From positions 1 to 52,239 of the IMG/VR virus record IMGVR_UViG_3300009158_000066: 52,239 bases of DNA. One strand, given 5' to 3'. Origin of the DNA: a virus. Taxonomy: Duplodnaviria > Caudoviricetes. Position numbers and translations under genes: made by a program. Below, one piece after another: positions 21,078-47,772 of the stretch (the first letter of the stretch is position 1; each line of letters begins with the position of its first letter). The notes below the pieces were generated by a model. It was not told where the DNA came from. It saw only the letters and a list, made by a program, of their open reading frames with translations, and ran no database searches.

Positions 21078-21695
21078 TTAGCTATAGATTAAACTACCAT
21101 CTTGTTCAGTAAAAAAAGCACCATCTGACTTGAGATACAACTTTATCATCTCACAGCGAAGATCAGGTGGTCCGTTTAGTGTTATAACAGCAGGACAATT
21201 GTCTAAAGGAAAGAATATATCCTTACCTCTTTCATATGTACCTACAACAGCGCTAAAAATATTATCGATTTCATCAATATACGCTTCGTCAATCTCTCTG
21301 TTTTCTTTTTCTTCTAATTTAATTTCTCTACTTCTTGGTACATAAAAAATAATATCATATTTTGATATTACATCGCGTATCTTGTATTTTGTAGTTATTA
21401 CAAAATCATCAGTGACCTTCTTATTAGCATGCAACCACAACGTATGTACAGCATTGTCTATAACACATCTATCTAATACTGTATTAGGTGTAGCTGTATT
21501 AATTTCTTCTATTAAAGCATCTAGAATAATAGATTGAGACTCTTTAGTACCTTGTTTATTAATATCTAGACCTTTCTCTAAAATTAAGTCTCTGTAAGTT
21601 TTTTCTGACTTCTTAAAATTAGGCCAATTTTTAATAAACTGTTCAATTAATGTAGTCTTACCACTACATGCACTACCCATAAAAGCTATTTTCAT
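21078..21695 (-). CDS. P-loop nucleotide kinase-like protein (AAA_28/NadR-type)
   Basis: GSACSGKTT, VLDRCVID, YDIIFY; directly downstream of queE. Confidence 0.8.
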   Translation of the reverse strand: MKIAFMGSACSGKTTLIEQFIKNWPNFKKSEKTYRDLILEKGLDINKQGTKESQSIILDALIEEINTATPNTVLDRCVIDNAVHTLWLHANKKVTDDFVITTKYKIRDVISKYDIIFYVPRSREIKLEEKENREIDEAYIDEIDNIFSAVVGTYERGKDIFFPLDNCPAVITLNGPPDLRCEMIKLYLKSDGAFFTEQDGSLIYS

Positions 21696-21714: not shown

Positions 21715-22533
21715 CTACACACCAGTACAACTACCCCATGCAGATATATGCAAACGTTGTAGACCTCTAATTCCATATTTTTTAGACATCTCTAAGATAA
21801 AATTTGTACGCTCGTGAAAGTCTTCCTGCTTATCCAAGCCAGGCATCATACAAACACTCTTGATAGTTATATCAAACGGTTCAATATAACTTGCAAACAC
21901 TTCTTTTATATCATCTTCTGTACTTACTACAAACTTAAAACTATGGTTCTTATGAGTCTTAATAATCTGAATAGCTTCAGGGTTGATTCTCATCTCTTTA
22001 GACATACCGCTATTATCTAATTTAGCAGAACAGTTTATTTGATCTAGTCTATTCAATAATGCATCGTCAATACGTATTGTACCGTTTGTCTCAATTTCAT
22101 TAAATGTATTACCTTCTGGGTCAAACCACTCAAGAAACTCTACAATAGCTTTTTGATGCTTGGGTATTGTAGGTTCACCACCAGTCCATATCAAATGAAC
22201 CAACCCATTCTTAACGTTCTCTAAGATGCCTAAAGAAACCCAATCATCAACAAGATATTGAAACGGCTTGTAATTACCCTTGACCCATACAGGTGCACTA
22301 TCACACGTCCATGTAGCCTTACCTTCACGCTGAAGGGCTCCAATCAGATTACCACCAGCAACATATTCTTCAGTACTCTTCATCTCTTTTGTAAGAGATA
22401 TAATCTCTTGTGCAAGTAAACCGCAGCGAAGATTGCAGGATTTTAACCTTATAAAGTAAGCAGGTATACCTGTTGATATACCTTCACCTTGAACACTATA
22501 AAAACTCTCAGATATCTCTAGATGATCTTTCAT
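21715..22533 (-). CDS. queE: 7-carboxy-7-deazaguanine synthase (radical SAM)
   Basis: ESFYSVQGEG..G.PAYFIRL..CNLRC, WTCDS, TGGEP, IETNGT, SAKL, FKFVV, MMP, RLH..W. Confidence 0.9.
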   Translation of the reverse strand: MKDHLEISESFYSVQGEGISTGIPAYFIRLKSCNLRCGLLAQEIISLTKEMKSTEEYVAGGNLIGALQREGKATWTCDSAPVWVKGNYKPFQYLVDDWVSLGILENVKNGLVHLIWTGGEPTIPKHQKAIVEFLEWFDPEGNTFNEIETNGTIRIDDALLNRLDQINCSAKLDNSGMSKEMRINPEAIQIIKTHKNHSFKFVVSTEDDIKEVFASYIEPFDITIKSVCMMPGLDKQEDFHERTNFILEMSKKYGIRGLQRLHISAWGSCTGV

Positions 22534-32504: not shown

Positions 32505-33535
32505 TGAAAACAGCAGTAATAACAGGCATTACAGGTCAGGATGGGTCGTATCTAACAGAACAGTTACTTGAAAAAGGTTACGCTGTTCACGGTATGATGC
32601 GTAGATCATCATCATTTAATACACACCGTATTGAACATATTTACTCGCATGAGAATTTAAAATTACATTACGGTGATTTGACTGATACAGGTAGTATATA
32701 TTCTTTATTAGAGCTTATTGAGCCTGATGAAATATACAACCTGGCAGCGCAAAGTCACGTTAAAGTATCTTTTGATATACCAGAATATACCGCACAAGTA
32801 GATGCGGTAGGCACATTGAGATTTTTAGATGCAATACGTAAAGTTGGTTTAGAAAAGAAAACAAGATTTTATCAAGCATCTACCAGTGAGCTTTATGGTA
32901 AAGTGCAGGAGACCCCTCAGACTGAAAAAACACCATTTTATCCAAGATCTCCATATGGTGTAGCAAAAATGTTTAGTTACTGGAGTATTGTAAATCATAG
33001 AGAAGCTTACGGTCTTCATGCCTCTAACGGCATTCTATTTAATCATGAATCCCCAAGGCGAGGTGAAACGTTTGTTAGTAGAAAAATAACACGTGCAGCG
33101 ACTAGAATTGCAGTAGGATCACAATCTGTACTAAAGTTGGGTAATCTAGACGCTAAGCGTGATTGGGGATACGCTCCTGAATATACAGATATGATGTGGC
33201 GTATTCTACAGCAAGAAACTCCCGATGATTATGTTTGTGCTACAGGCGTGACTACTACAGTTAGAGATTTTTGCAAGTATGTATTTGATAGTCTTGGTGT
33301 TGAGATTGCGTTTAAAGGTACAGGGGTTGAAGAGGTTGGCTTCGACGTTAAGACAAACAAGACTTTAATAGAAATAGATCCTAGTTATTTTAGACCTACA
33401 GAAGTAGATCTTCTTTTAGGAGATTATACAAAGGCAAAAACAACATTAAATTGGCAACCAACAGTAAACGTAAGAGAACTTGCAAGTATAATGGTTGAGA
33501 GTGACCTCAAGCTAGCTAATAAAGAGAAAAATTAA
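32504..33535 (+). CDS. gmd: GDP-mannose 4,6-dehydratase
   Basis: [49 protein letters not shown]. Confidence 0.98.
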
Positions 33536-33536
33536 T

Positions 33537-34457
33537 ATGAAAACAGTATACGTTGCAGGGCATACAGGAATGGTTGGTTCAGCAATATGCAAACGTCTTG
33601 AGCAAGATGGTGTTATTGTTTTAAAAAAAACAAGTAAAGAACTTGATCTTCGAGATCAACTTTCTACAAATACCTGGTTGCAAGAATCAAAACCTGATGC
33701 AGTAATTATAGCTGCAGCTAAGGTTGGAGGTATACATGCAAATAATACTTACCCTGCAGAGTTCATATATGATAATTTAACTATAGCTTCTAACTTAATA
33801 CACTCTTCTTATAAAGTAGGTGTTAAGAAATTAATATTTTTAGGTAGTTCTTGTATTTACCCTAAATTTGCAGAACAACCTATCCAAGAAAGTTCATTAT
33901 TAACATCACCTCTTGAACCTACAAATGAAGCTTATGCAATTGCCAAGATTGCAGCTCTTAAACTATGTCAGTACTACAGAAAGCAATATGGTGTAGATTA
34001 TCATAGTGTAATGCCTTGTAATCTTTTCGGTGAAGGTGATAATTATCACCCAGATAACAGCCATGTGTTACCGGGGTTGATTAGAAGGTTTCATGAAGCT
34101 AAAATTGACAACAAACAAGATGTAATAATGTGGGGCACCGGTACACCGTTGAGAGAGTTTCTATTTGCTGATGATCTTGCAAAAATAATAGTCAAACTTT
34201 TAGCAAAAACAGATTTGCCTGATTGGTTAAATATTGGTTCTGATGATGAGTACACCATTAGAGAGCTTGCAGAGATGGTCAAGAACGTCGTAGGGTTTGC
34301 AGGAGATATAATTTTAGATTCTACAAAGCCAGACGGTACACCGAGAAAGAAGATGGATAACACTTTACTTAAAAACATTGTAGATGTTGAGTATACAGAG
34401 TTCACGAAAGGTTTAGAGCTTGCTTATAAAGATTTTCTACGTAGATATACTAAGTAG
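33537..34457 (+). CDS. fcl: GDP-L-fucose synthase
   Basis: GHTGMVGSA, AAKVGGIHAN, LGSSCIYPK, YAIAK, SHVLP, WGTGTPLREF, KPDGTPRK. Confidence 0.97.
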   Translation: MKTVYVAGHTGMVGSAICKRLEQDGVIVLKKTSKELDLRDQLSTNTWLQESKPDAVIIAAAKVGGIHANNTYPAEFIYDNLTIASNLIHSSYKVGVKKLIFLGSSCIYPKFAEQPIQESSLLTSPLEPTNEAYAIAKIAALKLCQYYRKQYGVDYHSVMPCNLFGEGDNYHPDNSHVLPGLIRRFHEAKIDNKQDVIMWGTGTPLREFLFADDLAKIIVKLLAKTDLPDWLNIGSDDEYTIRELAEMVKNVVGFAGDIILDSTKPDGTPRKKMDNTLLKNIVDVEYTEFTKGLELAYKDFLRRYTK

Positions 34458-34475
34458 AGCTCGTATAATATATGC

Positions 34476-37028
34476 ATGTATCGAAACGCATTTTACGATA
34501 ATAAAGAAGGAACAATAAGACTTCGAACTTGGACAGAAGATGGTAAGCGTATTGATACAGACGTGCCGTTTAGTCCGTTTTTGTATACAGAATCAGCAAC
34601 ACCTGCTGACGCAACTAGTATTTTTCGTACTCACTTAAAGCGTAGAGTTTTTAAGAATAACATGGAGCGTAGTAAATTTGTAAAAGAAACTTCTACGAGC
34701 CGTTTGTTCGGTAATATGTCTTGCGAGCAGCAGTTTTTACTTGAAGCGTTTAAAGAACAGGTAGGTGGTAAAGACTTTAGTAAATACCCATTAAAGATAT
34801 ATTCGTTCGATATTGAAACGTACTCCCCTAATGAGTTTCCAATACCTGAGTTAGCTAAAGACCCTGTAATACTAATTACAATACATAATAATCTAACTGA
34901 TGAAATTTTTAGCTGGGGTGTTGAAAAAGAATATAAACCTAAGAATGAACACGTAAAGTATTATTGCTGTCGTACAGAGTTTGAGATGTTTGAAAAGTTT
35001 ATGAATTTCTGGAAGATAGACCCTCCAGATATTTTAGTAGGGTGGAACTCTGAACGATTTGATATTCCATATATTATAAATAGAGCTCGTGGGTTGCTGG
35101 GTGATGAATTTATAAATCAACTTTCACCTGTTGGAAAATTATACTATAAACCTATTATGGATAATTTTGGTAGAAATACAGGAAAATGGATTATATATGG
35201 TTTGAGTTGTCTTGACTATATGGAGATATATAGAGCGTATGCAAAAGGTGAACGTGAATCTTATTCTCTTAACTATATCGGTGAGTATGAATTAAAGGAA
35301 GGTAAATTAGCAATCAATGCTACAAATCTCTCTAACCTTGCTAATGAAGATTGGGAAAATTTTGTAGACTACAATATTCAAGATGTACAGCTTCTTGTAA
35401 AACTAGAAGCAAAATTAAACTATCTTCGAATTGTACGCCTACTTGCGTATAAGGGTTGCACTAACTTTGAAGCAGCATTAGGTAAGATTGCTATTGTAAC
35501 AGGTGCAATGTATCTTCAGGCATACAAGCAGGGGTATGTTATACCCACCTTTAAAAATGAAGAGATTAGAGATACACTCGTTGGTGGTTATGTTAGAGAG
35601 CCAGAACGCGGTCTCAAAAAAAGTATAGTAAGTTATGACGTTAACTCACTATACCCAAACACAATTATAACTTTAAACATATCTGCAGAAACAAAGTTAG
35701 GTAAAATTGTGATTGGTGAATATGGTGTAGACGACAAACTGACAATTAGATTAGTAAACGGTAAGATACATGAGTTAACAGAAAAACAGTTTAAAGCTTT
35801 TATTAAAAAAGAAAAGATCTCAGTATCAAAAGCGGGGGTATTATATTCTCAAAAATATAAAGGTGTATGTCCGAATCTAATTGACACTCTTTATACTGAA
35901 CGTGTTGAAGCTCAAAAACAAAAGTTAACTCTTGAAAAGAAGAAAAAGTTAAATGAAGAAGAAAAAGCTACTGTAGAATATCTTGACACTCTACAGTATA
36001 CGATTAAGATTCTACTCAATTCAATTTATGGTACTTTTGCAAACAAATATAGTGCGTTTATGGATATTGACAACGCGTCGTCAATCACAAAAACAGGTCA
36101 AGCGGTAGCGAAAGAAGGAGCTAAGATACTAGACCAATTTATTCAAAAAACATATGGTGTAGAGTCTTCTTGTGTTATTGCAGGGGATACAGACAGTGTA
36201 TACATTACTATACAGCCAATTTTAGATAAATTAGAACTGCCGCTAGCTGTAGATAATTTAATAACAAAAAAAGTACATACAATTGTTGATGAAATTACAG
36301 AGGTAGTAAATAGGGAAATTAATAGTTGGGCTGGTACAGAATTAAATTCAAGCGATTCACGTTTTGTTTTCAAGAGAGAGGTAATTGCAGATGTAGGTAC
36401 ATTTTTGCAGAAAAAAAGATATATAATTCGTATCTTAGATAAGGAAGGGGTAGCAGTTGAAGGTGGTAAATTTAAGTATGTAGGTGTTGAGATAGCCAGA
36501 AGCACTATGCCTAAAAAAGTTAAAGAGATTGTTAAAGAAGTTTTAGAAAACGCTCTCTTGACTAACGACATTAAAGGTACCAATGACATTTATCGTCATG
36601 CATACGACACATTTATCTCATTACCGCTTGCAGAAGTAGCTTTTAGAAGTAGTATTCAGAATTACAATAAATACGCTGAAGGTGCTACCTTAGATAAATT
36701 TAACAAAGGTACACCATGTCACGTGAAAGCTAGTATAGCGTTTAATCTACTTTTAGAGAAGTTTAAATTGTCTGGTAAGTATGAAAAAATACAGTCAGGT
36801 CAAAAAGTAAAGTACTTCTACACAGCCAACAACCCCTATAGACTTGACGCTATTGCTTTTGTAACAGATTACCCAAAAGAATTTGAAAAGGTCAAGATTG
36901 ACTATGAGAAAATGTTTTTAAAAATTGCAGCTCCTCCGGTAGAGCGTTTATATGAAGCTTTAGATTGGAGACTACCTCAAATTGGTAAAGAAGTACAAAC
37001 TGATTTATTTGATCTATTCTGTATATAG
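34476..37028 (+). CDS. gp43: Family B DNA polymerase, gp43-like
   Basis: Exo I DIET, Exo II NSERFDIPY, Exo III YNIQD; SYDVNSLYP, KILLNSIYG, GDTDS, KKRY. Confidence 0.98.
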   Translation: MYRNAFYDNKEGTIRLRTWTEDGKRIDTDVPFSPFLYTESATPADATSIFRTHLKRRVFKNNMERSKFVKETSTSRLFGNMSCEQQFLLEAFKEQVGGKDFSKYPLKIYSFDIETYSPNEFPIPELAKDPVILITIHNNLTDEIFSWGVEKEYKPKNEHVKYYCCRTEFEMFEKFMNFWKIDPPDILVGWNSERFDIPYIINRARGLLGDEFINQLSPVGKLYYKPIMDNFGRNTGKWIIYGLSCLDYMEIYRAYAKGERESYSLNYIGEYELKEGKLAINATNLSNLANEDWENFVDYNIQDVQLLVKLEAKLNYLRIVRLLAYKGCTNFEAALGKIAIVTGAMYLQAYKQGYVIPTFKNEEIRDTLVGGYVREPERGLKKSIVSYDVNSLYPNTIITLNISAETKLGKIVIGEYGVDDKLTIRLVNGKIHELTEKQFKAFIKKEKISVSKAGVLYSQKYKGVCPNLIDTLYTERVEAQKQKLTLEKKKKLNEEEKATVEYLDTLQYTIKILLNSIYGTFANKYSAFMDIDNASSITKTGQAVAKEGAKILDQFIQKTYGVESSCVIAGDTDSVYITIQPILDKLELPLAVDNLITKKVHTIVDEITEVVNREINSWAGTELNSSDSRFVFKREVIADVGTFLQKKRYIIRILDKEGVAVEGGKFKYVGVEIARSTMPKKVKEIVKEVLENALLTNDIKGTNDIYRHAYDTFISLPLAEVAFRSSIQNYNKYAEGATLDKFNKGTPCHVKASIAFNLLLEKFKLSGKYEKIQSGQKVKYFYTANNPYRLDAIAFVTDYPKEFEKVKIDYEKMFLKIAAPPVERLYEALDWRLPQIGKEVQTDLFDLFCI

Positions 37029-37053
37029 ATCAAATAAATATCTTTTATAAGAT

Positions 37054-38730
37054 ATGCAAGACCTTTTACCGGAATATAAAACTGAATCAGGTTACATTTA
37101 CTTTACAATAACAAATGCAGGGTACATACAATTTGTTCTTAATTTCTGTAAAAGAAATAAAGAATTAAACACACTTAAAAAATTAATAATAGTTTGCACA
37201 GATAAAGAATCCTACAACCAACTAACCTACCTCGTTGATTGTATATGTGTATATTTTCCGTGCTTTATATCTAAAACTCTTGAATCCTGGCATACAACAA
37301 ACTATAAAGATATTGTTTTTAAGAAGCTAGATATCACAAAATGGGTTCTTCAATGGGCACAGTTAAACGATGTTAAACGTGTCGTGTACCTTGATACTGA
37401 TATGTGGTTGTATAAAGATTTTGTACCTGATCTTGAAAATTTTGTAGATAAAACATACGATATCGTAGATGTTATAATGCAAGATGGTGAAAATTATGCT
37501 GATGAACCTTTTGAACCTACATACACAATAACACCGACAACAAGTACGCTTGAGGTTAAGAAATACTGCACACGTCTATGTACAGGTCTAATGATACTAA
37601 AACCTAATAATACTGTTACAGATATGCTTGACTATAAGAGCAATAGACTTGTAGATTGGTCTAAGTACGTAGGTAATCAACCATTTTTAAATGACACTAT
37701 TGATGCTTATCAAATTACGGCAATAGCTCTACCAAGACGTCTAGCAATAAATGGTAGCATATTCAACACTAGCGATATAGCAAGTAGTAAGGATAAACTT
37801 GAACTCGAACTAAATAAACTGAAGTGTAGTGATACATGGTTATTACATTACACATATTCTATTGGTGTTGCAAAAATAGAAATGATGTCTTTATTAGGTC
37901 ACTGGGCTCTGTCTACTGCTGAAACTCAAGCTTTTTTAGGTAAAAGTACAGGTCGTCCAGATCTATATGTAAGATGCCCTGACGGATTTGCAAATCAGCT
38001 GAGAATTCTACTTGCAGGAGTTTATCTAATGCAAACTAATAGTATAAACAGCTTTACAATTGAATGGGTGTTAAACAATCATAATAATGTAAATTTTTTA
38101 GATTATTTTGAAAAACCACCAGGTGTTGTTATAAAAGATATTGATAGTAGTATTGACGATGAAAAAATTATTAAAACTTGTAGTTTTGAATACTTAATTA
38201 ACAAATACGCTAAACGAGGCACGCTATGGAATACAGCACTTAGTGTAGCTTTAAAGTATTTAATTATAAAAAGAGATGTACAACTAGAAGTTGATAGTTT
38301 CGTTAAACAAAACAAGATCAATGAATCCCTTGGTGTTCACGCAAGACGTACATGCAAGACAGCTCTACTAGAAGGTGTACACGATAGAAGTTTACCTCTT
38401 ACAAACACTGAAATTCTATCCATCTGTAGATCGTTTACAAAAGTGTATGTCGCAACAGATAATAAAGAAACACAAGACTACTTCATCAAGGAATTAAACG
38501 AATCCGTTGTAGTATACAAGCCTATCATACATGGAGCGGAGCATTTTCCGTATGATGAATATAGTAGAGATGGTGTACAGAGATACACAGACGGTAAGCA
38601 CAATATAATGGACTTCTTATCACTAAAACAGTGTAGAACTTTTTTAGGTAGCAATGAAAGTGCTTATTCGTTACTATTATTTCATTGGAGAAAAAATAGT
38701 AACGACTACCATGTCTTTGGTAAACTATAA
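37054..38730 (+). CDS. Two-domain glycosyltransferase: GT-A (GT77-like) N-terminus plus fucosyltransferase-like C-terminus
   Basis: N-terminal VYLDTD (DxD), CTGLM, NQPFLN, LHY; C-terminal DGFANQLR, GVHARRT, VYVATDN, D...L..C..FLGSNESAYS (motifs shared by GT11/GT23/O-fucosyltransferases). Confidence 0.8.
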   Translation: MQDLLPEYKTESGYIYFTITNAGYIQFVLNFCKRNKELNTLKKLIIVCTDKESYNQLTYLVDCICVYFPCFISKTLESWHTTNYKDIVFKKLDITKWVLQWAQLNDVKRVVYLDTDMWLYKDFVPDLENFVDKTYDIVDVIMQDGENYADEPFEPTYTITPTTSTLEVKKYCTRLCTGLMILKPNNTVTDMLDYKSNRLVDWSKYVGNQPFLNDTIDAYQITAIALPRRLAINGSIFNTSDIASSKDKLELELNKLKCSDTWLLHYTYSIGVAKIEMMSLLGHWALSTAETQAFLGKSTGRPDLYVRCPDGFANQLRILLAGVYLMQTNSINSFTIEWVLNNHNNVNFLDYFEKPPGVVIKDIDSSIDDEKIIKTCSFEYLINKYAKRGTLWNTALSVALKYLIIKRDVQLEVDSFVKQNKINESLGVHARRTCKTALLEGVHDRSLPLTNTEILSICRSFTKVYVATDNKETQDYFIKELNESVVVYKPIIHGAEHFPYDEYSRDGVQRYTDGKHNIMDFLSLKQCRTFLGSNESAYSLLLFHWRKNSNDYHVFGKL

Positions 38731-38898
38731 AAGTAAAAAAGTGTCAACGGTGTATGTTTCAAGCTGAGCTATTGTACATCTATATTTTTCTTCAGATGTT
38801 ATTAAGAGTTTAGTCTTTGCTTTACACTCATCTTTTGTCTCAGAAATTGTACTCCAGAGATATTTACAATCTATTTTAGATACATACATTATTTTCAT
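38725..38898 (-). CDS. Possible small protein (57 aa)
   Basis: Manual translation MKIMYVSKIDCKYLWSTISETKDECKAK...; fills the intergenic gap; no other support. Confidence 0.3.
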   Translation of the reverse strand: MKIMYVSKIDCKYLWSTISETKDECKAKTKLLITSEEKYRCTIAQLETYTVDTFLLL

Positions 38899-38927
38899 TT
38901 GAAAAAAAATTAAAAGTGAGGTATAAT
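38899..38927 (+). promoter_or_regulatory. Sigma70-like early promoter
   Basis: TTGAAA-N17-TATAAT ending 7 nt before the ATG at 38935. Confidence 0.7.
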
Positions 38928-38934
38928 TCTACTT

Positions 38935-39789
38935 ATGCTAGTAAGTCACGAAACACCTGTAGACATGTTGGATGTATCAAGATACTACAATGACTATGAT
39001 TATTGTCTTGTTCATCTTTTACCGGAAAACGAAAAATACAAAGATTTTTATATTGAATCTGTTAAGTTAGGTAGACATGTTCTACTTGACAATTCAATTT
39101 TTGAATTAGGAGAAGCATATGATAACACAAAATTTGCGCAGTGGGTTGTAGATCTAACCCCGACTGAGTACATTGTACCAGATGTTCTTGAAGAGACTCA
39201 TCAAACAATTAGTTCTTTTGTAAGCTTTACAGGGACATATAAAGACTTACCAGGCAAAAAGATTGGCGTTGTACAAGGAAAGACTTATGAAGAAATAGTT
39301 GAGTGTTATAAATTTCTTGCAGACAAAGTAGATAAAATTGCTATAAGTTTTGACTATAGCTTTTATCTCAATAGTAAAGAAGAAAACAACAATTATAAAA
39401 AATTTATTGTATCAGAATTAAATATTAGAGAAGATCTTATTGATAATAAATGGTGCGATTACGCTATTGGTAGAATTCAGCTTTTAAATAGATTGATAGG
39501 GGATGGTATTTTTGTTGAGAAACCTCATCACTTATTAGGGTGTAGTGTACCTTGGGAATTTAAAGCTATTAATAATACACTTGATAGCTTTTATTTAAAG
39601 TGTATTGAAACTATAGACACATCAAACCCTATAGTAGCAGGTATATTAGAGCATCCGTATAACATTAACTACGGTCTTTGTGAGAAGTGGTCTTATAAGT
39701 TAGTAGACTTTATTAATCATGTTCCGCATATCAAGCAAAAACAAATAATACAAAACAACGTATGGATGTTTAAGAATTTCTGTCGTTAA
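38935..39789 (+). CDS. TGT/DpdA-like TIM-barrel protein (7-deazaguanine insertion or nucleotide-forming enzyme)
   Basis: LLDNSIFE (cf. DSG.F), VPDV, GVVQG, HHLLG, IDTSNP follow the TGT/DpdA motif order; heads an operon containing queF. Confidence 0.7.
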   Translation: MLVSHETPVDMLDVSRYYNDYDYCLVHLLPENEKYKDFYIESVKLGRHVLLDNSIFELGEAYDNTKFAQWVVDLTPTEYIVPDVLEETHQTISSFVSFTGTYKDLPGKKIGVVQGKTYEEIVECYKFLADKVDKIAISFDYSFYLNSKEENNNYKKFIVSELNIREDLIDNKWCDYAIGRIQLLNRLIGDGIFVEKPHHLLGCSVPWEFKAINNTLDSFYLKCIETIDTSNPIVAGILEHPYNINYGLCEKWSYKLVDFINHVPHIKQKQIIQNNVWMFKNFCR

Positions 39790-39793
39790 TTTT

Positions 39794-40330
39794 ATGAAAA
39801 AATGGGTAGCTTTATTCTCACAAACAGGTACAGAGATCTTTAATCTAATTGAAGATCTTGCTATTAAACCTGATAGAATTGTTATTAATAATTCTGATCT
39901 AACAAATGTTAATAGTAAATTGTTAGATAAACATTTTGATGTATTGTGGGTTGTACCTAATAAGCCAAGCATTGAGGAGTATGATACCTTTCTTGATGAA
40001 AGTACAATCGTAACAATGCACGGTTGGTTGAGAATTGTGCCGCCTATAATTTGTGAGAGATATAAGATATATAATCTACACCCAGCTCCATTAACTCGTT
40101 ACCCATTTCTCAAAGGTAAAGATCCGCAAAAAAGATGTATAGAACAAAATCTAGAGTACGGTGGTAACACGTTACATGTGTGTTCGAGTGAGTTAGATTC
40201 AGGCAAAATTATATATGAGGATGAGGTTAGAATAAGAGGCTACAGTGTTAATGTAGCATATGATGCAATATATGCATCAGCATTTAAACTGTGGAAGAAA
40301 TTTCTAATAAATGAATTTAAAAGAAGTTAA
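39794..40330 (+). CDS. PurN-like formyltransferase (candidate preQ1 formyltransferase, DpdN-like)
   Basis: LFSQTGT, GWLRIVP, YNLHPAPL, GNTLH...ELDSGKI formyl-THF transferase motifs. Confidence 0.85.
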   Translation: MKKWVALFSQTGTEIFNLIEDLAIKPDRIVINNSDLTNVNSKLLDKHFDVLWVVPNKPSIEEYDTFLDESTIVTMHGWLRIVPPIICERYKIYNLHPAPLTRYPFLKGKDPQKRCIEQNLEYGGNTLHVCSSELDSGKIIYEDEVRIRGYSVNVAYDAIYASAFKLWKKFLINEFKRS

Positions 40331-40541
40331 AAGTTCAATACAGTTAGAGTTGCTTTATAAAATCTTGTCATGTATTTACAATGATGAACTAGAAACTTTA
40401 TTTGCGACAGAAAGTTATAGAGATATACATACCTTAGTCAAAAGTATGATTATTTACGACATGATATTTTACACTGCAGATAATAGATTGTTATTGACTT
40501 CTATAGGTAGAAACGTATTATTCAATTGCCCGTTATTTTAA
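40311..40541 (+). CDS. Small hypothetical protein
   Basis: 76 aa ORF within the operon. Confidence 0.55.
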   Translation: MNLKEVKSSIQLELLYKILSCIYNDELETLFATESYRDIHTLVKSMIIYDMIFYTADNRLLLTSIGRNVLFNCPLF

Positions 40542-40545
40542 ATTT

Positions 40546-41076
40546 ATGAAAATTGCACTTTCAGGTCTACACAGTCAAGGCAAGACAACGTTACTCAATA
40601 TCTTTGATAACAATCAAATTTTTAAAGATTATTATAAAGTGCCAAGCCCTACAAGAATACTTCAAAGTGAAGGTTTTGTAATAAATGAAAGCGGGGATGA
40701 AGTTACTCAAACACTCATAATGATGCAACATTATAAGAACGCTGTAAAGTGCGGTACAAAAGCTTTTTTTGATCGTTGTACTTTAGATGGCTTAGCGTAT
40801 AGTCTCTTTTTTAAAGAGAAATTAAAAGATAAAAAAGTGTATAGTTTAATTGTAGATTTATTTAAATTAACAATTCAAAGCTATGATGTTATATTTTATA
40901 TTGAACCAGAACTTGAACTACAGAATGACAATACACGATCTCTTGATCGTGTATTTTTTGACAATGTAAAACAAAACTTTGAAGACGTTATTGCAGAGTA
41001 CAAAATTGATGTTAAAAGAGTTAAAGGTACAATACAAGAACGTGTAGATTTTATACAGAAATTTATTAATATTTAA
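40546..41076 (+). CDS. P-loop nucleotide kinase-like protein (AAA_28/NadR-type)
   Basis: GLHSQGKTT, FDRCTLD.LAY, YDVIFY; similar motifs to 21078..21695. Confidence 0.8.
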   Translation: MKIALSGLHSQGKTTLLNIFDNNQIFKDYYKVPSPTRILQSEGFVINESGDEVTQTLIMMQHYKNAVKCGTKAFFDRCTLDGLAYSLFFKEKLKDKKVYSLIVDLFKLTIQSYDVIFYIEPELELQNDNTRSLDRVFFDNVKQNFEDVIAEYKIDVKRVKGTIQERVDFIQKFINI

Positions 41077-41078
41077 AT

Positions 41079-41987
41079 ATGAGTGATATACTAGACAATT
41101 CAGCTATTTCAAAAGTTCTAGGTCAGAGAGTATCTGCACCTGCTCGTTATGATAAATCTATTTTAGTCCGAGAACCTCGACAAAGTAATAGAACGTATTT
41201 AGGTATACGTGATAGTGCTTTACCGTTTGTTGGTAAAGATCTTTGGAATAACTGGGAGATTAGTGCGCTTACAACTAACGGTATGCCGATAACAGGTATT
41301 GCACAAATAGTATACGACTGTAACTCAAAGTATATTGTTGAATCAAAATCTGCTAAGTTGTATTTTAATTCTTTCAATATGACTCAATTTGGAGATTCAA
41401 GTACGGAGGTAATTAAAAATATTGAAGAGTGTGCTTCAAGAGATTTATCTGAACTACTTGAATCACCCGTATCTGTAAAGATATTTTCAGCATCAGCTCA
41501 TAATTCACGAGATACTGATTTGAAGGAATATTCAAAGTATATAACACTTGAAGACCAAGAAGGTGTAAATGAAATAAAATTTAACACATATAGTGAGAAT
41601 TCAGGTTTGCTTGTTATTAACAAGAGTAATACAACTCAAGAACAATACTTTAGAAGTACACTACTACGTTCAAATTGCCGTGTAACTAATCAACCCGATC
41701 ACGGAGATGTATATATCTACCTGAAATCAAAAAATAAAATTACACCAAAATCCCTTATTCAATATATAGTGAGTTTTAGAAATGAGTGTCATTTTCACGA
41801 AGAGATCTGTGAGGCTATTTATAAACGTATTCTTGATCTATGTGAACCTGAAGAGTTGAGAGTGTCATGCTATTATGTACGTCGTGGAAGTTTAGACATC
41901 AACCCTGTACGAGCTACTCATGAACATTTACTTGAAGATTATCTATTAAATACTAATATACGTTTCTGTAAGACACCTAGACAATAA
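41079..41987 (+). CDS. queF: NADPH-dependent preQ0 reductase, bimodular QueF
   Basis: DLWNNWEIS, VESKSAKLYFNSF, RSNCRVTNQPD (catalytic Cys/Asp), FHEEICE, RRGSLDINP. Confidence 0.95.
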   Translation: MSDILDNSAISKVLGQRVSAPARYDKSILVREPRQSNRTYLGIRDSALPFVGKDLWNNWEISALTTNGMPITGIAQIVYDCNSKYIVESKSAKLYFNSFNMTQFGDSSTEVIKNIEECASRDLSELLESPVSVKIFSASAHNSRDTDLKEYSKYITLEDQEGVNEIKFNTYSENSGLLVINKSNTTQEQYFRSTLLRSNCRVTNQPDHGDVYIYLKSKNKITPKSLIQYIVSFRNECHFHEEICEAIYKRILDLCEPEELRVSCYYVRRGSLDINPVRATHEHLLEDYLLNTNIRFCKTPRQ

Positions 41988-41992
41988 AAATT

Positions 41993-42373
41993 ATGAAGAA
42001 AAACGAAAAAGACAATAAAGAAACCTTGACAGTGTTTCTTGATACAATTGGTCGAACTATTCTTGGCGCTCTTGAAGCGGAAGATAGTAACTCAATTACT
42101 ATCAAGAACCCTGCAGTCGTAAACATTACTCCCAACCCTACAAACGGTCAGATATCTCTACAGTTACTACCTCTATTTTTTAGAGAGTTTCTAGCAGATA
42201 GTACCGAACCTACCAGGTGGGTGTATCAGAAGAGTTTAATAACTCGCTGTCAAGATATTACTCTTGACTTCAAGTTTCTAGCACAATACGGCCAAATTTT
42301 TGCACCAATTCAAGCTCAACAAGCAGAGCCTCCCAAGGGAGATGGTAATGTGATCAAATTATTTGATGAATAA
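41993..42373 (+). CDS. Hypothetical protein
   Basis: 126 aa ORF ending VIKLFDE. Confidence 0.7.
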   Translation: MKKNEKDNKETLTVFLDTIGRTILGALEAEDSNSITIKNPAVVNITPNPTNGQISLQLLPLFFREFLADSTEPTRWVYQKSLITRCQDITLDFKFLAQYGQIFAPIQAQQAEPPKGDGNVIKLFDE

Positions 42374-42400
42374 TTAAAACACAACACTAACAAACTCATT

Positions 42401-42434
42401 AAAACCTACACAATACAAAGTGTAGGTTTTTTTT
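42401..42434 (+). terminator. Intrinsic terminator
   Basis: AAAACCTACAC-aatacaaa-GTGTAGGTTTT followed by a T-run. Confidence 0.85.
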
Positions 42435-42467
42435 GATTTAACGAGAATGTAATATATCATACTACAT

Positions 42468-43565
42468 ATGGCTAAAGACTCTCTTAATCATCTTAAAGAT
42501 ATTTTCAAATCTGTCGACGATCTTAACCCTGACGCTGCTACTCTCGATGAAAGTACTCTTTCGTCTGCTGACGAATGGATTGATACTGGGTGTTATGCAT
42601 TAAACGCTATCATTTCAGGTTCTTTATATAAAGGTATACCTGTAGGGCGTATTGCAGGGTTTGCAGGACCATCGCAAGCTGGCAAATCACTGATAATGAA
42701 TCGCATCATGGCTAATGCTCAGAAGATAGGCTATGTACCTGTAATTTGGGATTCGGAAGTTGCAGTAGATAAGCGCAGCGCTGAAGGTGCAGGTATGGAC
42801 ACAAAACGGGTTAAGTATTACCCAGTAGAAACTATTGAAGATTGTAGAAATCAAATGTGTAAATTCTTTGATAATATTATTGCAGCAAATAATCCAGAGT
42901 TAAAATTTATCGTTGCAATTGATTCTCTCGGTAACTTAGCAAGTGCGAAGGAAATAAGAGATGCATCTGCAGGTAAGGATGCAAGTGATGTTGGTCAACG
43001 TGCAAAAGCAATCAAATCAATGATGCGTACTTTAACGTATAAAGCTGCAAAAGCAAAAGTACCAGTGTTGTTTAGTAATCATATATATGATAGTATGGAG
43101 ATGTTTCCTTCACTCGTTAAGACACAAAGTGGTGGGAAAGGACCTATATATCTTGCATCAGTATTAGTGCAGTTGAGTACTCGTAACGAGAAGTCTACTG
43201 AAAACCCAAATGAAGCGTCAGTAGCTATTTCAAATAATGTTTCAGGTGTAACACTTTCAGCAATGACTGTTAAAAATCGTTTTGTACCAAACTTTTTAAA
43301 GACTGAATTATATTTAAATTTCAAAACCGGTCTTGATAAATACTCAGGGCTATTTGAAATAGCAACAGCGTATGGAGTTTTAGTGAAAGCAGGTAATAGA
43401 TATACATTTGGTGAAGAGAATTTAGGTTATCGTAAAGATATTGAAAAAAATATTGAATGTTGGGAGAAGATAATGCCAAAACTTGAAGAAGTTCTGCAAG
43501 AGCAATTATGTTATAGCAATGATAAGACAGCTGAGTTGCAAAAAGAAGTTGACGATATAGCATAA
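42468..43565 (+). CDS. uvsX: RecA-like recombinase UvsX
   Basis: IDTGCYALNAIISG, GPSQAGKS, WDSE, IDSLGNL, NHIY, SGG, KNRF. Confidence 0.93.
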   Translation: MAKDSLNHLKDIFKSVDDLNPDAATLDESTLSSADEWIDTGCYALNAIISGSLYKGIPVGRIAGFAGPSQAGKSLIMNRIMANAQKIGYVPVIWDSEVAVDKRSAEGAGMDTKRVKYYPVETIEDCRNQMCKFFDNIIAANNPELKFIVAIDSLGNLASAKEIRDASAGKDASDVGQRAKAIKSMMRTLTYKAAKAKVPVLFSNHIYDSMEMFPSLVKTQSGGKGPIYLASVLVQLSTRNEKSTENPNEASVAISNNVSGVTLSAMTVKNRFVPNFLKTELYLNFKTGLDKYSGLFEIATAYGVLVKAGNRYTFGEENLGYRKDIEKNIECWEKIMPKLEEVLQEQLCYSNDKTAELQKEVDDIA

Positions 43566-43570
43566 TATCT

Positions 43571-44920
43571 ATGCAGAATACAAACATAGCAACAACGCTT
43601 GACCTTGACTTCTACGAAGGTGTAATTTTGCTAAATAGTCTCTTAAGTACAGACTATCTAGCAACAATAATAGATTTTGTTAAACCTGATTATTTTAATG
43701 ATAAAGACATTAGGGTAGTGTTTAGTACTATATCTAATTTCTTTCAAGAAAGAGGTGTAATACCAACACATACAGAAATAAAATCAAGACTCCTAACAGA
43801 AGAAGATAAAAAAGCATTTAATAATACAGCTACAAAGTTAAAACAACTCGATAAAACTTTTGAAAAGCAAGAACTTCTAATAAACACCGAGCGCTTTCTT
43901 AAAGAAAGATGTCTACAGAAAGCTATTATTGAAACTGCAGAAAAATTTTCAAAAGGTAAGATAGAACCTCAAGAAATTTTACAAGAGTTTGAAAAAGCTA
44001 GTGCTATCTCATTAAGTGAGAGTATGGGGCATTGGTATTTTGAAGATATTGATAAACATATCAAAGATCTCGTCACAACCTACAACCCACTACCTTTAGG
44101 TTGGAGATTTTTAGACGAACGTTTAGAGGGCGGACTTTATCCAAAAACGTTAACTTGTTTTTTAGGTCAAGTTAACGTCGGTAAGAGTATATTCTTGGGA
44201 AATATAGCTACAAATATAGTTATGAGAAATCATAACGTGTTGTTGATTTCTCTTGAGATGTCTGAGTTTATGTATGCTAAGCGAATAAGCTCTCAGATTA
44301 CACAGATACCACATAATGAATTAAAAGTATACACTGATGAGATTAAAGAGTCTGTAGAACATCTAAAGCGACAAATAGAAAGTAAATTGGTAATTAAAGA
44401 GTACCCACCAAAATCAATTACATGTAGACATATTGACGCATACATGACTAAACTAACACAACGCGGGTTTAAACCTGCTGTTTTAGTTATTGATTATATT
44501 AATTTATTAAAACCGGTTTCAAAGAACTTAAACTCATATGAGAGTGTTAAAGAAGTTGCTGAACAGTTAAGAGCTCTATCGTTTAAATACAATATACCGA
44601 TTGTAACAGCTTCTCAGCTTAAGAGAGATGCGTTCAATACATCCAACCCAGGTATGGAGGGGGTATCAGAAAGTATTGGTCTTGCAGCAACTTGTGATGT
44701 TATGTGCTCTATATGGCAGGAAGAAGAAGATAAAGAATTAGGTCTAGTTCATTTAGGTATGATCAAGAACCGATTTGGGCCAAATTATGGTACATGCGCT
44801 TTTAAAATTAAATATGACACACTCACTCTAACAGAGACAAGTGTTGATTATTTTGCAGCTGATAATGTAGAAAACGCTATTGAAGACGCATCAACTACAT
44901 TAGATAAATTGAGTGTTTAA
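43571..44920 (+). CDS. gp41: Replicative helicase gp41 (DnaB-like)
   Basis: GQVNVGKS, ISLEMSE, IKEYP, IDYINL, TASQ, KNRFG. Confidence 0.95.
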   Translation: MQNTNIATTLDLDFYEGVILLNSLLSTDYLATIIDFVKPDYFNDKDIRVVFSTISNFFQERGVIPTHTEIKSRLLTEEDKKAFNNTATKLKQLDKTFEKQELLINTERFLKERCLQKAIIETAEKFSKGKIEPQEILQEFEKASAISLSESMGHWYFEDIDKHIKDLVTTYNPLPLGWRFLDERLEGGLYPKTLTCFLGQVNVGKSIFLGNIATNIVMRNHNVLLISLEMSEFMYAKRISSQITQIPHNELKVYTDEIKESVEHLKRQIESKLVIKEYPPKSITCRHIDAYMTKLTQRGFKPAVLVIDYINLLKPVSKNLNSYESVKEVAEQLRALSFKYNIPIVTASQLKRDAFNTSNPGMEGVSESIGLAATCDVMCSIWQEEEDKELGLVHLGMIKNRFGPNYGTCAFKIKYDTLTLTETSVDYFAADNVENAIEDASTTLDKLSV

Positions 44921-44968
44921 GATATTATAAAATAACACACTATACTTTAAGTTGAACTAAAAGTACAA

Positions 44969-44993
44969 ATCGCCTAATTAACAATTAGGCGAT
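44969..44993 (+). promoter_or_regulatory. 11 bp hairpin overlapping the start codon of 44992..45309, with CTAATTA at the apex
   Basis: atcgcctaatt-aac-aattaggcgat; ATG at 44992. Confidence 0.6.
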
Positions 44994-45309
44994 GCTTAAT
45001 AGTAAAAATATTACAAATATTATACATAATAGTAACCCTGTTGAAACAACTGCTGGCAAGGAGTTTATAACAGGTTTACTAAAAGTTGGAGCGTTTCTGT
45101 CAATAGTTAGCGGCAAGAAGATAAATTCTTCTACTTTATTTACTATGATCCTTGAAAATAGCGACATTCGCTATATATTTGTGTCATTAACAGGTGCTTC
45201 AGACGAAAGAGAAGCACTATTGGGTATGCTATATATGTACCCTGCTCTTTTAAAGAGTAAAAATGTTAAAAAGACGTTTCAAAGATCCCTTAAAAATGAC
45301 AGAATTTGA
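44992..45309 (+). CDS. Hypothetical protein
   Basis: 105 aa ORF. Confidence 0.65.
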   Translation: MLNSKNITNIIHNSNPVETTAGKEFITGLLKVGAFLSIVSGKKINSSTLFTMILENSDIRYIFVSLTGASDEREALLGMLYMYPALLKSKNVKKTFQRSLKNDRI

Positions 45310-45973
45310 AAAGCAAATATACAACAGTTATCTTGCAATAACCCGACAGATAAAAAACAAACCGTTCAAAAAGAGAGCAAACTTTGAAAATTTTGAACAA
45401 ACACCAGAATATCTTTTAGTAAAAAGACTCTGTATTCTCTTTAGCAAACATAAAGAGATTGATATAAAAACTTACTTTGAAGCCCCATATAAAATATACC
45501 AAGATGCTTCATTTTTCGATTTAGGCTATTACTCAAGCCCTCGAGCTGTAAAAGCATACACTTTATATCGAAAAATATTAAACTCTAATAATCCTGATGA
45601 TTGTGTTGATGAAGTTAAAAAATCATTAGAGTTTTTAACTAAATTCTGTATTGATTCAAATATACAGCTTTTAGATTATACAAAACATTCTAGTGGTAGT
45701 ATACCTACATGGGTAGAACATCTTAAAAGAAATCAAATACACCCTTACACCTTAATGGAGTTTACAGGTATATATAAAACACTCAATACACTTACCCCTG
45801 AAGAACAAGAAATACTGCTTGGGTCTTTTGCTTCAGACTACTTTAAGTTTAGAGACAAGTATAATAACAGCAACACCCTCAAGCCGTTACTGCAAAAAGC
45901 TTTCTTTAAACTTCAGAATTTAATTTTTAAACGCTTGCAGATAAAGAAGGAGAATATACAATATAAAGAATAA
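45296..45973 (+). CDS. Hypothetical protein, possibly a gp59-like helicase loader
   Basis: Size, basic aromatic composition and position directly upstream of gp32 (T4 order 59-32); no definitive motif. Confidence 0.45.
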   Translation: MTEFEKQIYNSYLAITRQIKNKPFKKRANFENFEQTPEYLLVKRLCILFSKHKEIDIKTYFEAPYKIYQDASFFDLGYYSSPRAVKAYTLYRKILNSNNPDDCVDEVKKSLEFLTKFCIDSNIQLLDYTKHSSGSIPTWVEHLKRNQIHPYTLMEFTGIYKTLNTLTPEEQEILLGSFASDYFKFRDKYNNSNTLKPLLQKAFFKLQNLIFKRLQIKKENIQYKE

Positions 45974-45976
45974 ATT

Positions 45977-46891
45977 ATGAAATTTACTAACTCAATGTTT
46001 AACGATATTAAGACAGCAATGACTTCTAAAGGTGAATCAGCTTTTAAAGATGTCTTAAAATTTGAAGCAGGCAAGACGTATAACCTACGCCTTGTACCAA
46101 ACATCAACCAGCCAAAGAAAAGCATCTTTCATTATTATCATCATAGCTGGAATAGCTTGGCTAGTACTAAGTTTCTATCTACTGTATGCCCTACTACGTT
46201 TGGTGAATCATGCCCTATCTGCAGTCACGCTATCAAGACTTTTCGTAACGGTTCAAACGAAGAAAAAGAAAAGAACAAGCTTATTTCTAGAAAAGAAAAT
46301 TGGCTTGCTAATGTGTATGTAGTAGCAGACCCTTCTAACGCTGAGAATGTAGGTAAGGTCAAGATGCTTAGGTATGGTCGCGAATTGGCAAAGATTATCA
46401 ACGAAGCAATTGACGGTGAAGATTCTGAAGATTTTGGAGCCAAGATCTTTGATGTAGTGAATGGTTGTACCTTGCGCGTAAAGTGTGAAGCTCGTTCTGG
46501 AGCTCCGCAGAAGAAGCAGTTTGTTACGTACGGTTCGAGTAAGTTCGTAGCAGCATCAACGCTTGATGATATTGATGCTGGTCGTCTAGCTGAAATTCAC
46601 GCAAGTATCTTTGATCTTGAAGCTGTCAACAAGCTTGCTACCTCCCCTGAATTGCAGAGGATGTTAGACCAACATTATTTCTGCGTTGAAGATGCAGTGT
46701 CTTCAGAAGATGAAATTGTTGATGATGAAATACCTAGCAAGAAACCTGAACTAACTAAAAAGAAAGAAGTATCTAAACCAAAAACTCAGATTGATGATAT
46801 CTTCGAAGGAGTAAAAGAAGCTAAGAGTAAGAGTGAAGACGAAGACGATTTTTATGACGATGAATTGAAAGATATTCTCAGCAAAATGTAA
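45977..46891 (+). CDS. gp32: Single-stranded DNA-binding protein gp32
   Basis: LRLVP, HSW, CPTTFGESCPIC, NVYVVADP...GKV, YGSSKF, acidic C-terminal tail. Confidence 0.93.
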   Translation: MKFTNSMFNDIKTAMTSKGESAFKDVLKFEAGKTYNLRLVPNINQPKKSIFHYYHHSWNSLASTKFLSTVCPTTFGESCPICSHAIKTFRNGSNEEKEKNKLISRKENWLANVYVVADPSNAENVGKVKMLRYGRELAKIINEAIDGEDSEDFGAKIFDVVNGCTLRVKCEARSGAPQKKQFVTYGSSKFVAASTLDDIDAGRLAEIHASIFDLEAVNKLATSPELQRMLDQHYFCVEDAVSSEDEIVDDEIPSKKPELTKKKEVSKPKTQIDDIFEGVKEAKSKSEDEDDFYDDELKDILSKM

Positions 46892-46934
46892 CCTTTAACT
46901 TTATTAATTTTAGTAACTAACTTATATAAATTAT

Positions 46935-47768
46935 ATGCCACGTAAAAAAACAAACGACGACATACCAGACATTCAAAATACAATTGAGGGATTTCCAAAG
47001 AAATATATACCAAAAGTAGGTACTCGAGACGCCACGGTGCCTATCAAGATCATTCGTAAGGATGGAACTGTAAATGAAGGTAGTGGTAAGGTTAGTATGT
47101 ATACTGATCTTACACCTGAAGTAAAGGGTACGAATATGAGTCGGTATCGTATTCTTATTGAAGAGATTCTTCAGAAAGATGGTTATTATATTCATGAAGT
47201 AATTCCGAGTCTCCTTACTGAATGTAAGGAGCGTCTTAAGGCTGATAATGCTTATGTGAAGATTAACTTTGACTACTTTCTTAAGAAGAAAGCGCCAGTA
47301 TCAGGTGTAGAGTCTCATATGGATTATAGAGGCTGTATGGAAGGTAAATTGATCAATGGAGAGCAGAAGCTATATCTAAAGGTTAGTGTGCTGTATGCAT
47401 CGTTGTGCCCTTGTAGTAAAGAGATTAGTGATTATGGAGCTCATAATCAGCGAAGTGTTGCAGATGTAGTAGTAGAACTTGATGAGTCAAAAGGTGTTAT
47501 GTGGATTGAGGAGTTGATTGATATTGTAGAGCGTTGCAGTTCTGCACCTATCATTAACGCATTGAAGAGAATCGATGAAGCATATCAAACAGAACTAATG
47601 TATGAAAACCCTCGCTTTGTTGAAGATATGGTTCGCTTGATTGGTCAAGAGCTTGATATTGAGCTTGATAACCGTATCAAAGATTATAGTGTTGTAGTAA
47701 ATCACTATGAAAGTATTCATAGTTCAACTGCATGTGCAATTATTAACGCTGGTAGAACATTAACGTAA
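46935..47768 (+). CDS. folE2: GTP cyclohydrolase IB
   Basis: KGTNMSR, SLCPCSKEISDYGAHNQR, KRIDE, ENPRFVEDMVR, ESIH. Confidence 0.95.
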   Translation: MPRKKTNDDIPDIQNTIEGFPKKYIPKVGTRDATVPIKIIRKDGTVNEGSGKVSMYTDLTPEVKGTNMSRYRILIEEILQKDGYYIHEVIPSLLTECKERLKADNAYVKINFDYFLKKKAPVSGVESHMDYRGCMEGKLINGEQKLYLKVSVLYASLCPCSKEISDYGAHNQRSVADVVVELDESKGVMWIEELIDIVERCSSAPIINALKRIDEAYQTELMYENPRFVEDMVRLIGQELDIELDNRIKDYSVVVNHYESIHSSTACAIINAGRTLT

Positions 47769-47772
47769 TATT

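Follow-up and report, generated by a model that had tools for sequence, protein, structure and literature searches.

IMG/VR record IMGVR_UViG_3300009158_000066, from a virus of the Caudoviricetes, is linear and 52,239 nucleotides (nt) long, and it was analysed in full (the whole stretch is called the window here). Between positions 38935 and 41987 it carries four tightly packed open reading frames (ORFs), all on the plus strand: a 284-amino-acid (aa) homologue of the DpdA3 family of 7-deazaguanine transglycosylases (38935..39789), a DpdN-like formyltransferase of 178 aa (39794..40330), a P-loop kinase of the AAA_28 family of 176 aa (40546..41076) and a bimodular QueF of 302 aa, the nitrile reductase predicted to convert 7-cyano-7-deazaguanine (preQ0) to 7-aminomethyl-7-deazaguanine (preQ1; 41079..41987). 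A preliminary description of this DNA had placed the four ORFs at these coordinates and called the last three a formyltransferase, a kinase and QueF; the ORF listing and Pfam, respectively, bear this out. The ORFs are real and far beyond chance, as some 70 other phage contigs encode full-length homologues of each. The sole gap in the cluster is filled by a small ORF of 76 aa between the formyltransferase and kinase genes (40311-40541, plus strand). We interpret 38935-41987 as the core of a DpdA3/DpdN-type 7-deazaguanine DNA-hypermodification module of an uncultured T4-like phage, a reading to which we assign a probability of roughly 0.78.

The first gene is assigned by homology and by fold. 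Its product is 42% identical to gp65 from Flavobacterium phage vB_FspM_immuto (immuto), annotated as 'DNA guanine transglycosylase' (E 1e-68), and 42% identical to gp056, the DpdA3 of the Campylobacter phage CP220 (E 2e-47). A more distant relative is CGPG_00065 of phage phiST (25.7% identity, E 2e-5, 71% of the query covered), and the protein falls into PHROG 19058, whose function is listed as unknown (2.6e-51). At E <= 0.01 neither Pfam nor NCBIfam gave a family match, and the model of tRNA-guanine transglycosylases (TGT), PF01702, was among those unmatched. The TGT family carries a CxCxxC...H zinc site, and the CxCxxC motif is absent from the translation. Searched against PDB sequences, a profile of 29 members recovered no TGT, its two rows (E 0.13 and 0.25) being at chance level, and hhalign returned probabilities of 1.4% for E. 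coli TGT and 0.2% for phage 9g DpdA, both being single-sequence templates without depth. The TGT-like barrel of the preliminary description is nevertheless borne out by fold, if not by sequence. With the AlphaFold2 (AF2) model (predicted local distance difference test score, pLDDT, 94.5), the best 50 PDB rows in Foldseek were all tRNA-guanine transglycosylases (best E 4.8e-7). VIA-align gave Z scores of about 16: 16.5 for the archaeosine TGT of P. horikoshii (1iq8) and 16.2 each for Z. mobilis TGT and the bacterial DpdA 7ui4. The superposed residues number 221-230, at a root-mean-square deviation of 3.0-3.1 and 10-13% sequence identity. The window protein thus shares the barrel of these enzymes and differs from bacterial DpdA and TGT in this low identity, in being about 100 residues shorter and in lacking CxCxxC.

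Forty columns of the DpdA3 alignment are invariant in 29 of 29 sequences, among them D52, D83, G202 and D228, and in the model the three aspartates are found where predicted strands reach their C-terminal ends. Invariant residues at strand ends fit what is expected for the active site of a barrel. The aspartates may be equivalent to the catalytic aspartates of TGT, which we take to be those numbered Asp102 and Asp280. Charge was also considered as a sign of DNA binding and dropped, as DpdA3 proteins (median isoelectric point 5.31, n=75), 9g DpdA (5.64) and E. coli TGT (5.97) are all acidic.

The second gene, which lies between DpdA3 and the kinase and QueF genes, encodes a protein 40% identical to immuto gp67 (E 1e-44, 176 of 178 residues aligned). 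Formyl_trans_N (PF00551) is matched at 1.5e-9 (38.3 bits, cut-off 26.1) over residues 72-147 only. With the 16 members of its family the protein aligned to E. coli PurN in hhalign at 96.7% probability (E 3.6e-10), and N94, H96 and D135, invariant in all 16 aligned sequences, were paired with PurN N106, H108 and D144, presumably the catalytic Asn/His/Asp triad. Residues 1-59 do not align to PurN and hold an invariant FSQTG(S/T)E loop; such a non-PurN N-terminus would fit a different acceptor substrate. The loop was also considered as a counterpart of the phosphate-binding loop of PurN, a reading to which the hhalign result, with this stretch unaligned, lends nothing. The QueF at the end of the cluster contains both expected domains above the Pfam cut-offs (QueF_N, 2.5e-32; QueF, 3.3e-20) and is 43% identical to immuto gp69 (E 2e-87). 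It has ESKSAKLY at residue 88, which we take to be the QueF motif, and SNCRVTNQPD at residue 198, presumably the site of the catalytic cysteine.

The kinase matched AAA_28 (PF13521) at 3.3e-12 (47.4 bits, cut-off 27) and is 29% identical to immuto gp68 (E 5e-18) and 33% identical to CP220 gp057. Its family keeps the P-loop, a DR motif and a DDGxRS segment, and G7, G12, K13, T15, R37, I46-N47-E48, T54-Q55, R77, D81, D128 and R131 are invariant in 22 of 22 sequences. Foldseek with the AF2 model (pLDDT 89.1) found the ribosylnicotinamide-kinase (RNK) domain of NadR, thymidylate kinases (TMPK) and deoxynucleoside kinases (dNK), with E values of 9e-7 to 1e-5; the dNK match in Pfam was sub-threshold (16.7 bits, cut-off 27). 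The name thymidylate kinase, which is attached to the family in GenBank and in PHROG 2107 (6e-18), was considered and found unsupported: no such Pfam or NCBIfam model was matched at E <= 0.01, and the fold fits TMPK, dNK and NadR-RNK equally. We therefore class the protein simply as a kinase with a nucleoside/nucleotide-kinase fold.

We then compared gene neighbourhoods. The DpdA3 family is large, with 3850 clusters at E <= 0.001, and a relative is encoded in at least 590 IMG/VR stretches (590 of the 600 candidates listed). The best 80 of these stretches, hereafter the 80 loci, were searched by tblastn with the window proteins at E <= 1e-5; they are the closest relatives, a non-random and phylogenetically non-independent sample. 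Wherever at least 560 nt of sequence follow DpdA3, the kinase was present (74 of 74 loci). It lay within 1.1 kilobases (kb) of DpdA3 in 71 of these; in the other three (L058, L070 and L072) the distance was about 6.9 kb, and DpdN and QueF lay there too. In each of the six loci that lack a kinase match, the sequence runs out within 544 nt of DpdA3. Of the 63 loci in which 2 kb or more follow DpdA3, 35 have the order DpdA3-kinase-QueF, 25 have DpdA3-DpdN-kinase-QueF and 3 have DpdA3 and the kinase only. In CP220, whose base is dADG, the kinase homologue gp057 likewise lies directly 3' of DpdA3 gp056. Given the 74 loci and the CP220 pair, DpdA3 and the kinase therefore form the constant core of the system, with QueF and DpdN as add-ons. 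In phiST, which has a distant DpdA3, no kinase match was found.

Fusion proteins, all of which derive from metagenome gene calls, connect the same partners. Four DpdA3 relatives of 498-2000 aa were found. Three of them (P0121, P0123 and P0124) join DpdA3 to a full QueF; the fourth (P0122) has an extra N-terminal domain of about 310 residues, which has no Pfam or PHROG match, in front of DpdA3. Three relatives of the kinase reach 348-2000 aa. P0126 consists of a full DpdN (34% identity, E 5e-33) and a full kinase (35% identity, E 5e-24), P0125 (8 member sequences) of the kinase and, after it, DUF5591, which is the core domain of archaeosine synthase, and P0127 of the kinase with an extension of no known family. 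DUF5591 goes by the name ArcS2 in the available part of the text of PMC10516641. Through these fusions the kinase is tied to 7-deazaguanine chemistry and not to general pool maintenance.

The AAA_28 family as a whole is broader in function. A second member of 205 aa is encoded on the minus strand of the window (21078..21695; AAA_28 7.4e-7, PHROG 2107 1.9e-18), where it adjoins a QueE-like gene, and it is 28% identical to the cluster kinase (E 2e-15). Campylobacter phages likewise have two AAA_28 paralogues, and because the second adjoins a dUTPase in phage IBB_35, ordinary nucleotide work is also among the tasks of the family. CP220 gp055, which combines an HD domain with a P-loop, was considered as a counterpart of the second paralogue and rejected, being an AAA_33 protein dissimilar to the second kinase of the window.

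The closest characterised system is that of immuto, whose genome (immuto_2-6A) was the sole match in a nucleotide search. There the order is gp65 transglycosylase, a small ORF, gp67 formyltransferase, gp68 'thymidylate kinase' and gp69 QueF, identical for these four genes to that of the window, and the four products are homologous over their full length (42, 40, 29 and 43% identity, respectively). A GTP cyclohydrolase and QueE are common to both genomes. They differ in the type of cyclohydrolase, FolE2 in the window and FolE in immuto, in the DNA polymerase, family-B and T4-like in the window and family-A in immuto, and in the small ORF, which is not the same. In addition, the window cluster lies between polB and uvsX, and it has no neighbour that corresponds to the MazG-type gene or the phosphoribosyltransferase gene found in the cluster of immuto.

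The base made by immuto has been measured (Cui, Hutinet et al., NAR 2023, PMC10516641; our statements on this paper refer to the part of its text that was available). Its DNA contains 345,000 fdPreQ1 (formyl-preQ1) per 10^6 nt and gives no deoxyguanosine (dG) peak, i.e. replacement is complete, and the phage is resistant to restriction enzymes whose recognition sites contain G. The authors placed the transglycosylase in a new DpdA3 subfamily that permits full G replacement; complete replacement was found in DpdA3 phages, compared with <=30% for other DpdA subfamilies (PMC10516641). CP220, which stands with other Firehammervirus phages for the dADG system, also shows complete G replacement according to the same text. 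As in the window, its DpdA3 homologue (42%) is directly followed by an AAA_28 kinase homologue (33%); unlike the window, it has no QueF or DpdN adjoining DpdA3, its final base is 7-amido-7-deazaguanine, and an HD and AAA_33 protein lies upstream. Our literature search on DpdA3 and fdPreQ1 gave no relevant paper besides PMC10516641. The prediction in the preliminary description that the phage carries fdPreQ1 or a related base is thus supported by homology alone, through four genes that match those of immuto and are arranged as they are there, and the cluster is a diverged further example of the published DpdA3/DpdN fdPreQ1 system in another phage lineage, not a new type.

By analogy, a FolE2 and a QueE-like enzyme, with QueD and QueC from elsewhere in the genome or from the host, would convert GTP to preQ0, which QueF would reduce to preQ1. 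DpdA3, a trimmed enzyme of the TGT fold, would exchange guanine for preQ1, and DpdN, a PurN-type transferase, would formylate the aminomethyl group. In the virion DNA fdPreQ1 would then replace most or all G and confer resistance to G-dependent restriction enzymes. The AAA_28 kinase belongs to the module as an integral and constant member, and its substrate is most likely a 7-deazaguanine intermediate at the (deoxy)nucleoside or nucleotide level. What we observed directly is homology, fold, catalytic residues and the linkage of the genes. From these we infer the chemistry, which base finally results, how far it replaces G, in which order exchange and formylation proceed, and whether the target of DpdA3 is DNA or a nucleotide. 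The preferred order, in which DpdA3 takes the free amine preQ1 and formylation follows the exchange, fits the sequence data, because DpdA3 is fused to QueF in some relatives and because eight DpdA3 positions track QueF. The latter split 59 QueF-linked sequences from 4 QueF-less ones (CP220, L022, L024 and L025), so that CP220 differs from the window type at all eight, and E86 and D140 are acidic in the QueF-linked set only. With two independent lineages on the QueF-less side, these positions are best treated as a lead and not as a result.

The queuosine pathway of tRNA has QueF, FolE2 and QueE among its enzymes, and tRNA is the classical substrate of enzymes with the TGT fold. The cluster might therefore modify RNA in a queuosine-type manner, or raise the preQ1 supply of the host, and leave the phage DNA canonical. 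We consider this highly improbable. The DpdA3 of the window has neither a Pfam TGT match nor CxCxxC, and the cluster sits among replication genes, between the DNA polymerase and uvsX, helicase and gp32. No tRNA genes were found in the window, and no Rfam family, the preQ1 riboswitch included, was matched at E <= 0.1 within 36000-48000. Moreover, the closest characterised homologous cluster yields fdPreQ1 in DNA devoid of dG (PMC10516641, available text).

Two genes for the supply of preQ0 lie outside the cluster. The first step would be catalysed by a FolE2-type GTP cyclohydrolase I (46935..47768, plus strand; PF02649 6e-68; NF010200 224.9 bits, above the cut-off of 215). A diverged QueE-like radical-SAM protein of 272 aa (21715..22533, minus strand) matched PHROG 2076, 'QueE-like radical SAM domain', at 1.3e-41, and Pfam Radical_SAM at 0.0027 only. 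The remaining genes of the route, queC and queD, had been described as lying outside this window, and six-frame searches with PF06508 (QueC) and PF01242 (QueD) agree. Since QueC is present in all five fuller relatives, namely immuto and four contigs that are 81-100% complete, and QueD in three of five partial ones, missing sequence is the likeliest explanation for this gap; the alternative is supply by the host. A GMP-reductase-like gene was also seen (14855-15787, plus strand; NF003966 1.8e-92, 310 bits, under the cut-off of 344). In a phage whose DNA is predicted to lose its G, the product could deplete the pool of guanine nucleotides. As a gene linked to the system it was rejected: it occurs in none of the 80 loci within 10 kb of DpdA3, a gene of the IMPDH/GMP-reductase family was found in one of five fuller genomes, and its occurrence is sporadic.

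Several observations weigh against the assignment of the locus to an fdPreQ1 system. QueC and QueD gave no six-frame match in the window, which is about 24% complete, and QueC was not found in the five closest partial contigs either (35-53% complete). Five QueE NCBIfam models matched the QueE-like gene in pieces, all under their cut-offs, and QueF scored 243 bits against TIGR03138 (3.9e-72), under the cut-off of 293 bits. The DpdN-kinase fusion P0126 is known from one sequence on one 3-kb contig. As identity to the characterised phage is only 29-43%, a final substituent other than formyl is possible. For immuto itself, the available text of PMC10516641 shows that the name DpdN was given to the PF00551 protein gp067 as a prediction and that tests of DpdA3 in E. 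coli failed.

The step at which the base enters the DNA is where the kinase matters most. PMC10516641 proposes, in the text available, a post-replicative insertion of the base, i.e. DpdA3 would swap the base in finished DNA; on such a route the P-loop protein would be an ATP-using helper or a linked pool kinase. The superposition of DpdA3 on 7ui4, a DNA preQ0 insertase (Z 16.2), favours this, and so does the second AAA_28 paralogue, which stands among ordinary nucleotide genes and by a dUTPase in IBB_35. Bacterial DpdA needs the DpdB ATPase, and the helper role is likened to that of DpdB in the bacterial Dpd system. For a helper ATPase, however, a nucleoside/nucleotide-kinase fold and a fusion to a formyltransferase are unexpected, and one would not expect a pool kinase to stand beside DpdA3 in 71 of 74 loci, in phages of Campylobacter and Flavobacterium as well as marine T4-like phages. 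We regard post-replicative exchange as a credible route whose chances come close to even without reaching it.

The other route is pre-replicative, and the preliminary description had taken the embedded kinase as a sign of it. That was a fair hedge. Our data strengthen the connection of the kinase with the pathway, through the 74 of 74 loci, the fusions and the fold, and bear on this connection and not on the substrate. On this route DpdA3 would not be a DNA transglycosylase but would put preQ1 in place of the guanine of a free deoxynucleoside or deoxynucleotide, and DpdN would formylate a small molecule. The AAA_28 kinase, the phage deoxynucleoside monophosphate (dNMP) kinase and the host nucleoside diphosphate kinase would then produce the triphosphate for incorporation by the family-B polymerase. 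The constancy of the kinase next to DpdA3 agrees with this, as does its presence in CP220, which has the different base dADG, and the best Foldseek rows of the kinase are small-molecule nucleoside/nucleotide kinases only. The full fusion of DpdN to the kinase in P0126 points the same way, as do the MazG-type pyrophosphohydrolase and the phosphoribosyltransferase in the immuto cluster and the ribonucleotide reductase, T4 gp1-like dNMP kinase and GMP-reductase-like protein encoded in the window. In the available text of PMC10516641, full replacement is confined to DpdA3 phages, the others reaching <=30%, and cells infected with CP220 were seen to contain the ADG nucleoside.

Pre-replicative hypermodification is known from the hydroxymethyl-dC of T4 and from the Z-genome of S-2L and cyanophages, made with MazZ, DatZ and PurZ. 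As an analogy only, these pathways resemble the DpdA3 loci in combining modifying enzymes with nucleotide kinases and in complete replacement, and some DpdA3 relatives in having linked NTP pyrophosphohydrolases. They differ in that they are not known to contain an enzyme homologous to DpdA3, and the DpdA3 relatives examined have no constant dGTP-clearing enzyme. A constant partner that clears dGTP was sought and is supported neither by the window ORFs, among which none was recognised as such an enzyme, nor by tblastn in the 80 loci, nor by five relatives. The MazG of immuto had no tblastn match in the 80 loci or the window, and its phosphoribosyltransferase matched in 6 of the 80 loci only. 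Models of the MazG superfamily matched two of the five relatives (PF12643, 0; PF08761, 0; PF01503, 2; PF03819, 1) and were unmatched in one 100%-complete genome of 209 kb. Further points against a pre-replicative route are that polynucleotides (tRNA or DNA) are the substrates of all the best structural matches to DpdA3, that phiST has a DpdA3 and no kinase match, and that the view published in PMC10516641, as far as its text was available, is post-replicative. We therefore put this route forward tentatively, as a possibility clearly below even odds.

The remaining features of the locus concern its expression and its surroundings. The preliminary description placed the four genes behind one sigma70-like promoter. 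A motif TTGAAA-17-TATAAT with 11 of 12 matches is indeed present (38899..38927, plus strand), in the 204-nt gap 5' of the cluster; its role as a promoter is unproven. Only 7 nt separate the end of its -10 box from the ATG at 38935, so that it may be the promoter of a leaderless mRNA or a chance match, and the region holds no excess of promoter-like sites (27, compared with 21.5 +/- 5.0 in shuffles). Most of the gap is occupied by a 57-aa ORF on the minus strand (38725-38898), the start of which abuts the -35 element of the motif. Another promoter-like motif was seen at 40494-40521, inside the 76-aa ORF. This small ORF has no Pfam or PHROG match and belongs to no family; a recognisably similar ORF of 83 aa occupies the same place in L003 (3671-3922), and tblastn gave no match in the remaining 79 loci, so that it is seen in the window and L003 alone. 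In loci other than these two, the kinase lies directly 3' of DpdN or DpdA3. Downstream of QueF, an ORF of 126 aa without a family match (41993..42373, plus strand) is the last gene before a terminator-like hairpin with an 11-bp stem followed by a T run (42401..42430, plus strand). Its homologues (39-56% identity in tblastn) occur in T4-like loci that include the QueF-less L020, L022, L024 and L025, and it accompanies uvsX and not the deazaguanine genes.

Upstream, a GDP-L-fucose island surrounds the DNA polymerase gene (31266-34457 and 37054-38730). It includes a glycosyltransferase (PHROG 7162), a GDP-mannose 4,6-dehydratase (TIGR01472, 551.7 bits, above the cut-off) and a GDP-L-fucose synthase-like gene (443.9 bits, under the cut-off of 500). 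The protein of 558 aa encoded directly 5' of DpdA3 has Nucleotid_trans and weak O-FucT matches, and tblastn found no match to it in any of the 80 loci; its target may be the virion, the surface of the host or DNA.

By gene content the source is a T4-like myovirus with a GC content of about 30-38%, of whose genome the window represents about 24% (CheckV). The window encodes a gp25-like baseplate wedge, ribonucleotide reductase, a T4 gp1-like dNMP kinase, primase, a UvsY-like protein, a gp55-like late sigma factor, Mre11/Rad50-like proteins, family-B DNA polymerase, UvsX, a DnaB-like helicase, gp32, the sliding clamp, the large terminase and the tail tube. Because its polymerase reaches at most 31% identity to any INPHARED phage, with cyanophage-type T4-like phages among the best matches, we regard the phage as uncultured and distant from named phages. 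Two further proteins encoded on the minus strand were noted. One of 241 aa (23247-23972) has a Cys-rich core flanked by long low-complexity tails rich in Pro, Ala and Thr, and the other, of 195 aa (24495-25082), has a duplicated CxxCGSxNxGxGCRY motif and belongs to PHROG 2086, of function listed as unknown.

These findings place a predicted module for fdPreQ1 in T4-like phages of the environment, as an additional and diverged instance of an anti-restriction DNA hypermodification that is already published. The DpdA3 family to which its first gene belongs is very common in metagenomes. The kinase is the only part of the cluster that goes beyond the account in the available text of PMC10516641, where the words 'kinase' and 'thymidylate' have 0 occurrences. 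Complete base replacement by the editing of finished DNA would be unusual, and the conserved kinase, absent from the discussion in that text, offers a concrete alternative to the post-replicative route. If true, a pre-replicative route would explain why 100% replacement is found solely in DpdA3 phages. The three forms of the cassette, DpdA3-kinase, DpdA3-kinase-QueF and DpdA3-DpdN-kinase-QueF, together with the residues that track QueF, make a natural series for the study of substrate choice in this family.

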